Part shown: positions 33,662 through 45,289 of the stretch, in pieces
How the letters are laid out: each line of letters starts with the position of its first letter
Numbering within the stretch: position 1 is the stretch's first letter
Assembly (NCBI RefSeq): GCF_024298765.1
Contig: NZ_CP101210.1
Length of the DNA: 64,000 nt
Source: Escherichia coli
GTDB lineage: Bacteria > Pseudomonadota > Gammaproteobacteria > Enterobacterales > Enterobacteriaceae
Strand: one strand, 5' to 3'
Program-made: the position numbers and the translations under genes
Notes under the pieces: generated by a model
What the model saw: the letters and a program-made list of their open reading frames with translations, nothing else
Told to the model about the DNA's origin: nothing
The model's database searches: none

Positions 33662-34192
33662 TTATCTACATAATAATAGACCTTTGTAAAATAACTGTAT
33701 ATCATTACTGACATACAGTCTATTCATTAAAGACTTTTTATAACTCGAAACAGTTTTTATTGAAACGCCGAGGTTATTAGCAATATCTTTTCCACTTAAA
33801 CCATATAAAAACATCAGCAGGACCTCCTTCTGCCTTCCAGATAAAGAAAGCTTATAATGAGAGTTCTTTACTCTATAAATATAATGTGTGTTATTAAGTG
33901 GATTGTTTTTAGTTAAATCCTTTATATTGCAAATAGGGGCGTGGATAATATCCCTGAGAAAATCAAAGGTTTCAGGGGGAGCATAAAAAATGGTATCCGA
34001 ACACCTAAAATCAATGTTATTGAACTGTAAAAAACAAAAAACATCTGACGTTTTAGGGGATGATATTATAATAATATTTTTTACGCCATTAATTTTATTT
34101 TTCTGGATGACATCTTCAATTGTTTTGTTGATCCCAATAAGGAAATAACGATTATCACATATAACTTTCATATAAAGCGACCAACACTTCAA
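33662..34192 (-). CDS. tosF: LuxR-family transcriptional regulator (TosF-like)
   Basis: 176-aa ORF with C-terminal LuxR-type HTH (LSGRQKEVLLMFLYGLSGKDIANNLGVSIKTVSSYKKSLMNRL). Position downstream of the adhesin matches the tos locus layout. Confidence 0.55.
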   Translation of the reverse strand: MKCWSLYMKVICDNRYFLIGINKTIEDVIQKNKINGVKNIIIISSPKTSDVFCFLQFNNIDFRCSDTIFYAPPETFDFLRDIIHAPICNIKDLTKNNPLNNTHYIYRVKNSHYKLSLSGRQKEVLLMFLYGLSGKDIANNLGVSIKTVSSYKKSLMNRLYVSNDIQLFYKGLLLCR

Positions 34193-34675
34193 TTAACAGA
34201 CAAGCCTTTCATAAGCACATTTATATTTGAGATTTTTTCCTGATATTCCATTTTTTTTCTTTGCTTTATATATATGAGTATACACAGTCTTTGAACTCAT
34301 ACCAAACTGATAAGCAATACTTGCTACATTCCACCCATGGAAAACATAATAGAATAGTATAATCATCTCATTCATGGTTAATTTATGTGGAGAGTTCCCA
34401 AACAACAACCTGCCACTAAACATACATTCATAAATCGATGACAGGCTACTTATTGATTCTACTGGTAATAAGTAAAATCTATAACCGTTAAAAATATAAT
34501 TCATTAACATACTGTTTTTTTTATCACAGAGAATGACAAAAATATTATTGTTTATTATATGCTCACGATTATCTGGTATAAAAAAATCAGCACCAATAGT
34601 AATAGAATGCCTGCTCAATAATTTTTTCAAACCTAACTCAAGATATTTATTGTGCGTAACAATCATTATATTCAT
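34193..34675 (-). CDS. tosE: LuxR-family transcriptional regulator (TosE-like)
   Basis: 160-aa ORF with C-terminal LuxR-type HTH (LTMNEMIILFYYVFHGWNVASIAYQFGMSSKTVYTHIYKA). Adjacent to tosF. Confidence 0.55.
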   Translation of the reverse strand: MNIMIVTHNKYLELGLKKLLSRHSITIGADFFIPDNREHIINNNIFVILCDKKNSMLMNYIFNGYRFYLLPVESISSLSSIYECMFSGRLLFGNSPHKLTMNEMIILFYYVFHGWNVASIAYQFGMSSKTVYTHIYKAKKKNGISGKNLKYKCAYERLVC

Positions 34676-34795
34676 ACATTATGCCTTCTACAAGAAGTAT
34701 ATAAATGTCATATTGACTCATTTGCAAATTATTAAGTTGTTTCTATAACACTCAAAAATGTGGGAAGTTTCCCTCCCACATGAATAAGACAACTA

Positions 34796-37700
34796 TTAAA
34801 TTACACCATTCGCATCAATAATATTGTTATCAATATACACATTTGCGCCACTTACACTGCTGTATAACGTATAAGTATGCTCAATACCATCTAACGCAGT
34901 TGCTTTAACAGTTGTTGCCGTTGCCGTAAATGTACCCAGACTTCCCGCTCCGTCAGCCCCCAAATCAACTTTGTCATTGGCATCACCGGAAATATAAATC
35001 GTTGAATTGTCATTTATACCCAATACATCCGATGCCGTTAACTTGACTAACTGAGCTGCATTGTCAGCTTTCAGATCGCTACCAACAGTCATATCCACTT
35101 TCTCGAAGCCGGCAATACCTTCATTTTTACCGGCCGCTAGATTGACAGAAATGGTACCTGTCAGAACCAGGGTATCACTGCCTTCCCCGCCGTTAATATA
35201 GCCCTGATTACCGGAGGAGGTGGAGTCATAGTCTTTTGTCAGAACAACAATATCATCACCGGCACCGGCATCAATGGTCAGGTTTTTGGCAATTGTGCCT
35301 AATTTAAAGGTATCATTGCCGTCTTCACCATTAACGACAGTGGCATAAGCAGAATCCCCCATTACACCAGAAGTTGCATCAAATACATCATCTCCCGCCC
35401 CCAGTGAAATAGTCGTGTTATATGCACCATCTGTGATGGTAACAGTATCATTGCCGTCCCCCATAGAGACAGTACTGCCACCATAAATCCATCCGGCCGT
35501 TAAGGTATCCGCATTGTCACCGACAGAAATATTACCGGTCAGATTTTTAGTTACCGTAATATTATCACTGCCGTATCCGCCTAAAATTTCACCAGACACA
35601 GAGCCATAAATAGTGACGGTATTAACATCTGTGGCAGTGTCAATATTGTTGTCGTTACCCAAGCTTAAATTACTGCCATCCTGATAAACAGAAAGATATT
35701 CCTTAGGCATATTAGATATATCTTTTGTACCACTACCAAGATCCAATAAACCAGATAATGTTGTATCGTTATTGTCAGTAGCATCCCCCTGGATAAATGT
35801 ATCACTACCTGAACCAAGATAAATCTGTCCGGCATTTGTTACACCAGTACGTTTGATCGTAACAATATCATCGCCAGACTCAGTAAAGATATAACTACCC
35901 GCATACATAACACGTAATGCAGTATTCATACCATCCATAGTAAAAGTATCGTTACCCTCACCAGTATATACTCTTGTATTAGCCAGCATGTTACCACGAA
36001 TGACCATTAGATCATCACCAGCACCTAAATCAACAGTCGTAATGCTTTGATTGCCATCGGTTTTTGTTCCGTCTGGCCCATTATCCTGTGAGTTAGCAAC
36101 ATTACTATACGATGTTGTTTCTTTACCACTCTGGTAATAACCAACATAAACCGTATCATTGTAATCTGTTGTTACCATTGGATCATTTTCACCACTATTC
36201 GCGCCAATGGTATACCCAAAGTCCCCTTTTTCGGCGATAGAAGATGATAGTGAATATTTCAGTGTAAAATCACCGTCCAGATTACGTAATGAAATGGCAT
36301 TACCATCATAAATAACACCTGTTGCGGATGCTCCCGCATTATCAACGATGTCAGTAGCTGCCGTAACGTTATCAGATGTTCCCGTAATGGTCGCAACAAC
36401 TTTTTCCATACCCTCGGCATTAAAGGCATCTTGGTTAGCCTCAAGCGTTGGATCAACTATAAATGAAACACTTTTTGAACCGGCAGGAATAACAATTGTT
36501 ACGGTTGTTGCACCATCATAGGTTACTTTTCCAGTATCACCATGAAGGCCAATTTTCCCGTTATGCTGTGCTCCACCAATATCAGAATAGTCAGCAGCAT
36601 CAGAATGCCCAGCTCCGCTACCCAATGTAACTGTAACTGTTACATCTGTTGTAGTGACATGATTCAGAGAAACCGTATAAACCAGTCCAGTGGAATCATC
36701 CTTATCTTCAATAGTTGCGGGAACATCCATTACGGTCCCATTGACACTAGCTATACCAGTAAAACCATCACCATTGACATCTGTTGATGTTGTCTCAACG
36801 CTAATACTCACTGTTGGTAACACATCAGTTTTTGAGGTTACGGTTGACGGGTCACTTTCATTACCGCTCGGATCTTTGGCAACCCCGGTAACTTCACTGT
36901 TATCCTTCACGTTATCTGCCGGAATGGTCGCTTTATCGCCAGTGCTGTCCGGGATCAGCGTCGGATCACTGGATGTCCAGCCGTTATCCCCTTTCTCCAG
37001 CGTCACGGTGTGCTTACCACCTTTTTCATCTTCAAAGGTGACATCCACGGTATCGCCTTTATTGGCATCACCCGGCAGCTCAACAGAAACAGAACCATCA
37101 TCCTCTGCTTTTAATACCGGTGCCGACGGCGCCACTGTATCCACTGCGAAGTCAGCCGGCTGGCCCTGGCCACTGGTGTTACCTGCCGGGTCTGTGATTT
37201 CCGCGGTTACAGAATACTGACCATCTGCCGTCACTTTATCCGCCGGAATGGTCACATCAGCTTTACCTGCAGCCACTTCATCTGCGGTCAGCGTGTGCTC
37301 CACCGTGTCCGTCGTGCCGTCCGGTTTGGTGACCGTCAGCGTCAGGGTATCACCGGCAGCGCTGCCTTTCGGTACCGTGACTTCGGTCTGTACACCATCC
37401 TTCAGCTCTTCGGCATTCACACCATCTGCCGCTTCCGGAATGGCAACTACCGGTGTTGCATCTGTTGCACCATCACCATCGGTATCCCCCGGGATCTGGG
37501 TATCGGCAGCAAAATCAACCACATTCCCGGGTTTCGCCGGGTTACTGCCCTGAGTCAGAGTGACACTGACGCTGTTCTGCCCGTCAATCACCGCATCCTT
37601 CGGAATATCCATGGATACTTTACCGGCAGCCACTTCATCTTTAGTCACGGTATGTGTCACGTTCTCCGTGGTTTTGTCCGGACGGGTCACGGTAAGTGTA

Positions 37701-44554: not shown

Positions 44555-44606
44555 TTTTATGATTTTTATTTAAAATATTAATAACGTGATTGTCCGTGCT
44601 TTTGCA

Positions 44607-44909
44607 CTAAAAACTATTATTATAATATTCACTTAGCAATGCGCAGACATTATGTATATGAGATATTTTCTTTAAGCTAATAGAAAAATAACTCAGTGAA
44701 ACATCGTTTCTTTCACATACTTCTCGTTTTGTAAAACCATCTACTAAGTGCTCTCTTAATGACATAATGATCTTATCACTTCGAATTCCAGATAATTCTA
44801 TTAGTAACCAGAAGTGTTCATTTGAAATGTTATTTATAGCTGGTTTTACATTAAATCGATAATGAGTTAGCGTATTCCGCTGTATATGATCTGCCATACC
44901 ATTACACAT
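44607..44909 (-). CDS. tosR: PapB/FaeA-family transcriptional regulator (TosR-like)
   Basis: 100-aa ORF aligning by eye with PapB (HFWLLIELSGIRSDKII.SLREHLVDGFTKREVCE vs PapB HFFLLIGISSIHSDRVILAMKDYLVGGHSRKEVCE). Confidence 0.7.
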   Translation of the reverse strand: MCNGMADHIQRNTLTHYRFNVKPAINNISNEHFWLLIELSGIRSDKIIMSLREHLVDGFTKREVCERNDVSLSYFSISLKKISHIHNVCALLSEYYNNSF

Positions 44910-45289
44910 TATTCAATGTTTAATTTATTATTGATTCACATTATAAATACATATTTGTTTGCATCAAATTTTTTTTGCCCTCAATCAAAAAACCATTAAA
45001 TGAAATTTAAAACCAATAAAACCAATAATACTAGAGATTACATCTAAAAAATTACTTCTCTGTAGGGTTTTTATCTAAAAAAAGTGAAATCTCAAAACAA
45101 AAAATTATTTATAAAATAAAACAAATGGGCATTTTTTTGGTAAAAATCAATTTTTATATGCAGATAATATCTATATTATAGATATTATTGTTATCCATCA
45201 TGTAGCGACCAAGGCGGTAGTGATTAAAGGGGGGGTGGATATAAAAATTTATTGTACGTGGACTGCACCCCAAAACTTGGAGACCCAAC

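Follow-up and report, generated by a model that had tools for sequence, protein, structure and literature searches.

The locus studied here is almost certainly the tosRCBDAEF operon of PAI-aspV, an island of extraintestinal E. coli, uropathogenic strains included, in a protein allele identical to that of strain CFT073; the assignment is made from sequence. The window, a 64,000-nucleotide stretch of E. coli contig NZ_CP101210.1, carries seven intact genes on its minus strand in the order R-C-B-D-A-E-F, as called from open reading frames and domain profiles. The tos locus is already known and well studied, and this copy is not a new finding.

Identity of the locus and its island

The interval 33400–45400 aligns across all 12001 bases to positions 335200–347200 of CFT073 (NC_004431.1). 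Within the genes only three substitutions are found (39056, 39896 and 43715), and all three are synonymous. TosR, TosC, TosB, TosD, TosA, TosE and TosF are therefore each 100% identical to the CFT073 counterpart. The full 12001 bases are also matched at 100% coverage by at least 22 complete genomes, including NCTC9022 and FDAARGOS_1286. In CFT073 the locus is named tosRCBDAEF, lies on PAI-aspV and is controlled by TosR, H-NS and Lrp, according to the literature (PMC5956150; PMC7545054; PMC10392849). The original prediction had read a tos-type order on one strand, and its seven genes, strand and coordinates all stand. Its suggestion that the strain carries an adhesin linked to extraintestinal virulence is likewise borne out by the protein identity to CFT073 Tos.

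A SiiE-type locus, or a LapA-type one with LapG and LapD, might resemble tos merely in gene order, since these systems share the set of TolC-like channel, ABC exporter and MFP together with a giant repeat adhesin, and TosB does belong to the LssB subfamily. However, comparison with the CFT073 Tos proteins refutes this identity, with all seven products 100% identical, and its probability is practically nil. The LapA type is further opposed by the absence from TosA of a match to the NCBIfam retention-module model and by the lack of a LapG/LapD-like gene among the products annotated where the window is collinear with CFT073. The refuting condition of the original prediction, closer identity to another type I secretion adhesin family than to Tos, is decided in favour of Tos, and no observation speaks against the assignment.

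The island junction adjoining yafV is at window position 32027, which equals CFT073 position 348573, where PAI-CFT073-aspV has its published right end (PMC7545054). Both this junction and the flanking IS remnants are the same in CFT073. The predicted island at aspV is thus seen at its distal, yafV-side end, while aspV itself lies beyond the window; the only tRNA calls inside the window are tRNA-Thr and one tRNA-Gly. Past 47520 the two islands differ; the IS3, pic and cdiA segment of CFT073 is absent from the window, and the sequence runs on into TonB-receptor and FecCD-type genes.

Control region and secretion genes

Ptos, the AT-rich control region ahead of tosR (44910–45250, minus strand), is identical to that of CFT073 over its 341 nt and contains no GATC. 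Its G+C content is 23.5%, compared with 48% for the whole window, and only 0.12% of the 341-nt stretches of the window are at or below this value; the original reading of about 340 bp of very AT-rich DNA at this place is correct. The lowest-G+C stretch of the same length in the window (22.3%) begins at 44844 and overlaps tosR, and the low-GC tract proper spans approximately 44900–45200, with 14–26% G+C per 50 nt. On its upstream side Ptos is bounded by an IS-derived repeat starting at about 45256. Likeness to divergent tos-like loci ends at about 45259, and 45256–45400 matches transposase fragments in many genomes. A candidate sigma-70 promoter, TTGATG-16 nt-TATAAT, is located at 44940–44967 on the minus strand. 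This consensus match (10/12) is joint-best in a 12.8-kb scan, tied with three other sites, and it is treated as a candidate only, because the total of sigma-70-like sites in that scan equals the shuffle expectation. According to later papers that cite the primary work, tos transcription begins within this very AT-rich stretch, where it is held low in culture by H-NS and promoted by Lrp (PMC5956150; PMC10392849).

tosR (44607–44909, minus strand) encodes a PapB/FocB-family regulator of 100 aa, which scores 98.2 bits against PF03333 (Pfam cut-off 29.4) and matches the FocB structure 3M8J with an E-value of 1.3e-13. The CFT073 RefSeq start is at 44897 (96 aa), and the 303-nt form is annotated in EcN, 8178 and SCU-101. 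TosR is described in the literature as activating tos at low dose and repressing it at high dose; its reported targets also include pap, foc, auf and flhDC. The arrangement resembles pap and foc: a regulator of this family, an AT-rich control region ahead of it, and reported roles for H-NS and Lrp (PMC5956150). It differs in that a PapI-like gene is absent at tos. A pap-like Dam/Lrp methylation phase switch is unlikely at tos because the 433 nt upstream of tosR contain no GATC site.

tosC (43307–44554, minus strand) encodes a TolC-like outer-membrane channel of 415 aa from the ATG at 44554. It scores 96 bits against OEP (cut-off 22) and 113 bits against TIGR01844, which is below the cut-off of 225. 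The long start yields a signal-peptide-like N-terminus, MKRKHLLLLLLFSFSTNSAP, and strain 8178 isolate T4048 is annotated with the 415-aa form. tosB (41135–43282, minus strand) encodes a type I secretion ABC permease/ATPase, with 906 bits against TIGR03375 (LssB subfamily, cut-off 693) over residues 4–704 and matches to ABC_membrane and ABC_tran. tosD (39827–41089, minus strand) encodes an HlyD-family periplasmic adaptor, with 320 bits against TIGR01843 (cut-off 209) and a match to HlyD_3. The PapB-like, TolC-like, ABC and MFP labels of the original prediction are all upheld by these profiles. By homology, TosB, TosD and TosC make up a type I secretion system as ABC exporter, adaptor and TolC-like channel, respectively. 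The tosCBD genes lie directly upstream of tosA, and export of TosA is reported to depend on TosCBD (PMC5956150; PMC7545054), which agrees with the RTX trait of leaving through a neighbouring type I system by an uncleaved C-terminal signal, putative in TosA. The tosD-tosA intergenic region (39629–39826, minus strand) is AT-rich, with 25.8% G+C, and a sigma-70 match scan of it gives no convincing minus-strand promoter.

Architecture and surface retention of TosA

tosA (34796–39628, minus strand) encodes a secreted repeat adhesin of 1610 aa (163.9 kDa, pI 4.05), 100% identical to CFT073 WP_000781922.1. TosA is reported to be exported, to be displayed on the cell surface and to bind epithelial cells of the upper urinary tract (PMC5956150; PMC3088117). 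We infer an acidic protein built from an N-terminal β-module, a Gly/Ala stretch, seven Ig-like domains, a Ca-type β-helix and a C-terminal secretion signal. Residues 1–120 (39269–39628, minus strand) form the conserved β-rich module, a type that opens giant adhesins; no convincing solved structural counterpart is found for it. Residues 124–149 (39182–39259, minus strand) are a Gly/Ala-rich hydrophobic stretch with a poly-Gly end, which is conserved in kind through the N-terminal-module family and has a pLDDT of ~45–60 in TosA. The array of seven Ig-like domains, with Big_13 matches, spans residues ~164–935 (36824–39139, minus strand).

Residues ~1200–1510 (35099–36031, minus strand) are predicted to form a Ca-type parallel β-helix with degenerate GxGxD repeats, and AF2 pLDDT is mostly above 85 in this region. 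A PDB sequence search with TosA gives zero matches. By structure, the best PDB match of the β-helix is 3P4G from MpIBP, with a target TM of 0.61–0.69 and a probability of 1.00, so the predicted fold resembles this Ca-dependent domain. Strict GGxGxD motifs occur only twice (residues 1350 and 1480) and are not in tandem, and seven looser G-x-G-x-D/N motifs are spaced by 21–79 residues. The tandem GGxGxDxUx nonapeptide array that is the hallmark of RTX proteins is absent from TosA, and Pfam HemolysinCabind has no match even at an E-value of 10. The term RTX adhesin in the original prediction therefore fits the TosA sequence loosely, through two canonical nonapeptides and with no Pfam RTX match. 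The MpIBP protein of Marinomonas primoryensis has the same order of Ig-like extenders, distal β-helix and C-terminal secretion signal. However, the two β-helices share only 17–19% identity and the TosA repeats are irregular; MpIBP binds ice, whereas the literature gives kidney epithelial cells as the target of TosA.

In the Ig-like array a unit of 335 aa (1005 bp) is present 2.3 times, with copies that are 97–100% identical in DNA sequence. A repeat search shows three in-register 300-nt copies in tosA, 1005 nt apart. The 1005-bp period is above the limit of 500 of Tandem Repeats Finder, which accordingly reports no array in tosA; since a blastp self-comparison of TosA gives no off-diagonal rows either, the copies were identified by reading the sequence itself. 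E. coli strains carry between 0.3 and 6.3 units, and TosA versions of 940, 1945 and 2950 aa are present in other complete genomes. A word-indexed protein search for TosA returned mostly fragments shorter than 900 aa.

The predicted mass of 164 kDa is below the apparent mass of TosA, which is reported to exceed 250 kDa (PMC12029274). This gap could reflect anomalous migration or repeats collapsed in assemblies. In the latter case the tosA frame would be shorter than the real gene, as the near-identity of the 1005-bp units and the existence of longer and shorter versions elsewhere would allow. Against this, the 2.3-unit allele recurs in at least 22 complete genomes, as their 100% coverage of all 12001 bases implies, and slow migration on SDS gels is frequent among very acidic repeat proteins. 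We consider collapse improbable and retain the 1610-aa frame.

The N-terminal module together with the hydrophobic stretch may lodge in or under the TosC channel and so keep TosA on the surface, with residues 1–120 as the proposed retention plug. Such retention would work without a release system of the LapG/LapD type. Up to 47520, where the window is collinear with CFT073, no annotated product is LapG- or LapD-like, and the same holds for the annotated neighbours of two distant adhesins that share the N-terminal module. The NCBIfam retention-module model matches neither TosA nor its first 165 residues. TosA also has no match to the BapA prefix NF033677, to which 2 of 30 relatives of the N-terminal module match weakly (best E-value 6.5e-4). 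LapA of Pseudomonas fluorescens is comparable in being a giant repeat adhesin that is exported by an ABC protein, an MFP and a TolC-like channel, is kept at the surface and has an N-terminal folded module followed by a short Ala/Gly segment. It differs in the curated retention-module model, which TosA does not match, and in the LapG protease and the c-di-GMP receptor LapD, which are not annotated near tos. LapA is released by proteolysis, whereas tos is reportedly governed at the level of transcription by TosR, H-NS and Lrp. We tentatively suggest, as a possibility we hold at less than even confidence, that TosA may represent a widespread, uncharacterised class of giant type I secretion adhesins. 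In such a class an N-terminal β-module and a Gly/Ala segment would sit in a TolC-like channel without LapG/LapD, and transcription and the number of 335-aa units would alone determine display.

The distal genes tosE and tosF

A terminator-like hairpin (34758–34781, minus strand) with a 10-bp stem, a GAAA loop and a U-run starts 14 nt past the tosA stop codon. Its folding energy is -18.4 kcal/mol, with a z-score of -3.3 against shuffles, and it would lower read-through into tosEF. tosE (34193–34675, minus strand) encodes a small, divergent LuxR-type HTH protein of 160 aa. It scores 27.1 bits against Sigma70_r4_2 (cut-off 25.7), 19.7 bits against GerE, below the cut-off of 23.5, and only weakly matches EcpR (E-value 0.003, 17.5 bits, cut-off 300). 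tosF (33662–34192, minus strand; RefSeq start 34171, 169 aa) encodes a LuxR/GerE HTH protein, with 50.6 bits against GerE (cut-off 23.5) and an RcsB-like C-terminus (E-value 7.6e-10). The two proteins are barely alike (E-value 0.002). The tos transcript reportedly yields TosE and TosF as well, and these lower motility while the adhesin is produced (PMC5956150). They are similar in this respect to EcpR/MatA, PapX and MrpJ, which are motility repressors of adhesin operons, and like them are small HTH proteins at the operon end (PMC5956150); PapX and MrpJ belong to other HTH families. The original count of three dedicated regulators is overstated, since TosE and TosF are reported as motility suppressors and TosR also acts on other loci.

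Alternatively, tosEF could be largely a separate unit, with the hairpin ending most transcripts and an own AT-rich promoter in the 120-nt gap between tosA and tosE. The strong hairpin is followed by sigma-70-like sites at 34755–34728 and 34705–34678, and in Luterbach 2018 overproduction of TosR raised the tosCBD transcripts and not those of tosAEF (PMC5956150). However, a terminator behind tosA gives no reason why tosA itself did not rise either, and promoter-like sites in the region are no commoner than in shuffles. The literature treats tosRCBDAEF as a single operon (PMC5956150). A largely separate tosEF unit appears rather doubtful, and we keep the single-operon reading.

The locus adds nothing new on biology and is useful for typing. 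It marks the source strain as an ST73/CFT073-like extraintestinal E. coli, in which this published fitness factor for the urinary tract is intact.

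Gene content and identity with the CFT073 locus

Seven consecutive ORFs on the minus strand lie between 33662 and 44909 in the six-frame ORF list. They are tosR (44607-44909, 100 aa), tosC (43307-44554, 415 aa), tosB (41135-43282, 715 aa), tosD (39827-41089, 420 aa), tosA (34796-39628, 1610 aa), tosE (34193-34675, 160 aa) and tosF (33662-34192, 176 aa), in the positions given by the original prediction of a complete tos-type type I secretion adhesin locus at 33662-45250. In a Megablast search of 5426 complete E. coli genomes, window 33400-45400 finds full-length 100.0% matches in many strains, including the uropathogenic strain CFT073 (NC_004431.1, 335200-347200). 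There the RefSeq annotation lists these seven genes, and the locus is named tosRCBDAEF and lies on PAI-aspV (PMC5956150). Base-by-base comparison with CFT073 finds three differences within the tos genes (39056, 39896 and 43715), all of them synonymous, so that all seven Tos proteins share 100% identity with those of CFT073. The 341-nt stretch preceding tosR does not differ either. No other adhesin family shows closer identity, and the predicted locus is real, rightly placed and rightly interpreted.

Domains of the Tos proteins were assigned with Pfam and NCBIfam. TosR matches PapB at 98 bits and the FocB structure 3M8J with E 1.3e-13, and is by homology of the PapB/FocB type. The three export components are likewise assigned by homology: TosC is OEP/TolC-like, TosB is an ABC permease/ATPase of the LssB subfamily (906 bits, cut-off 693) and TosD is an HlyD-type adaptor (320 bits, cut-off 209). 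TosA contains Ig-like domains. TosE and TosF are small HTH proteins; TosF is clearly of GerE/LuxR type, and TosE scores below the GerE cut-off and above that of Sigma70_r4_2. The tosC start in CFT073 RefSeq (386 aa) cuts off a signal-peptide-like N-terminus, MKRKHLLLLLLFSFSTNSAP (window 44467-44554). The more probable start is the ATG at 44554, giving 415 aa, as annotated in strain 8178 isolate T4048.

Architecture, size and surface retention of TosA

The N-terminal module of TosA (residues 1-120) is beta-rich and confidently predicted, with pLDDT 94-98. Giant proteins of up to 4233 aa (69 cluster representatives) also begin with this module. Of 30 relatives, two give weak hits to the BapA-prefix model, and no convincing solved structural counterpart of residues 1-120 was found. 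A Gly/Ala hydrophobic stretch (residues 124-149) ends in poly-Gly and is conserved in kind across the module family. The Ig-like array (residues about 164-935; window 36824-39139) comprises seven domains, equal to 2.3 copies of a 335-aa unit. Residues about 1200-1510 are predicted to form a parallel beta-helix with seven degenerate GxGxD/N motifs. The best PDB match of this predicted model is 3P4G (target TM 0.61-0.69), and the modeled helix resembles the Ca-dependent beta-helix of the MpIBP adhesin. TosA has only two strict RTX nonapeptides and is not matched by the Pfam RTX model; the predicted "RTX adhesin" label therefore holds for the export mode and the general architecture but not for the classical repeat.

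The predicted mass of TosA is 164 kDa (pI 4.05), while a review cites >250 kDa (PMC12029274). Collapse of near-identical tosA units in the assemblies could leave the predicted mass below the reported one, but this is unlikely, since the full 12001-base match recurs in at least 22 complete genomes, which hence carry the same tosA allele. The simplest account of the gap is that TosA, a very acidic repeat protein, migrates slowly. The length of tosA differs between complete genomes by whole 1005-bp units: TosA has 940 aa in Nissle (EcN), 1610 aa in the window and CFT073, 1945 aa in strain 8178 and 2950 aa in SCU-101. In 83972 and others the span is 1005-1006 bp shorter than the query, implying a 1275-aa form.

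In the published work, TosA is exported by TosCBD and is described as an adhesin on the cell surface that targets upper-urinary-tract cells and as a mouse fitness factor (PMC5956150, PMC7545054, PMC10392849, PMC3088117). No gene resembling LapG or LapD, the release system of the LapA adhesin, is annotated within the CFT073-collinear region of the window or beside two distant adhesins sharing the TosA N-terminal module, suggesting that surface retention may depend on this module itself.

Promoter region and the hairpin after tosA

The AT-rich DNA of about 340 bp predicted upstream of tosR (44910-45250) is confirmed, with 23.5% G+C versus 48% for the window. No more than 0.12% of the window's 341-nt stretches are as low, and the absolute minimum overlaps tosR. 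A sigma-70-like candidate site, TTGATG-16 nt-TATAAT (44967-44940), matches at 10/12 positions and is joint-best with three other sites in the scan, which overall yields no excess of promoter-like sites over shuffles. The 433 nt upstream of tosR contain no GATC, which makes a pap-style methylation switch unlikely. The same published work reports that TosR is an activator at low dose and a repressor at high dose, that H-NS and Lrp are involved in tos regulation, and that TosE and TosF suppress motility (PMC5956150, PMC7545054, PMC10392849, PMC3088117).

A terminator-like hairpin (34781-34758, minus strand) with a 10-bp stem and a U-run lies 14 nt past the tosA stop codon; its folding energy is -18.4 kcal/mol (z -3.3). 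Two sigma-70-like sites fall between the hairpin and tosE (34678-34755). The hairpin might attenuate read-through into tosEF, and such partial termination would keep tosEF below tosA. Substantial uncoupling of tosEF from tosA seems rather doubtful.

Distribution and genomic surroundings

The tosRCBD and promoter segment is present in 313 of the 5426 complete genomes. It reaches at least 99% identity in 187 records, including Nissle 1917, ATCC 25922 and clone D i2, and 34 places are on plasmids. IS remnants flank the module on both sides. An IS630 fragment (32837-33645) lies 17 nt from the stop codon of tosF; upstream of the tos promoter region, an IS-derived repeat starting at about 45256 and an ISL3 pseudogene lie within 45256-47271. 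Together with the plasmid loci, these remnants suggest a mobile cassette. In related loci tosCBD are 87-93% identical, but the adhesin differs and has GA-like domains. In Proteus mirabilis, another uropathogen, the C-terminal 510 residues of an adhesin are 85% identical to TosA; the order in that locus (GCA_045951645.1 contig, 1-7396) is adhesin, TolC, ABC, MFP, without tosR, tosE and tosF.

PAI-aspV spans CFT073 248751-348573 (PMC7545054). Position 348573 corresponds to window 32027, where G+C falls and yafV, ivy and fadE start; aspV is beyond the window limits. Collinearity with CFT073 ends at 47520, and the window is not CFT073 itself. Beyond this point CFT073's IS3, pic and cdiA segment is absent; TonB-dependent receptor genes and FecCD-type iron-uptake transporter genes follow, and they also occur in other ExPEC and APEC genomes. 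Full coverage of 47520-64000 is not reached by any complete genome in the collection; the best covers 90%. ARAGORN calls a tRNA-Gly (GCC) at 59824-59898, minus strand, within an island-like region. In the CFT073-collinear part, the vacuolating autotransporter toxin gene vat (4593-8723; CFT073 371877-376007), a further ExPEC marker, adjoins a MarR-family regulator gene and lies beside thrW.

The tos locus of the window is a published system, and its proteins are identical to the published ones.
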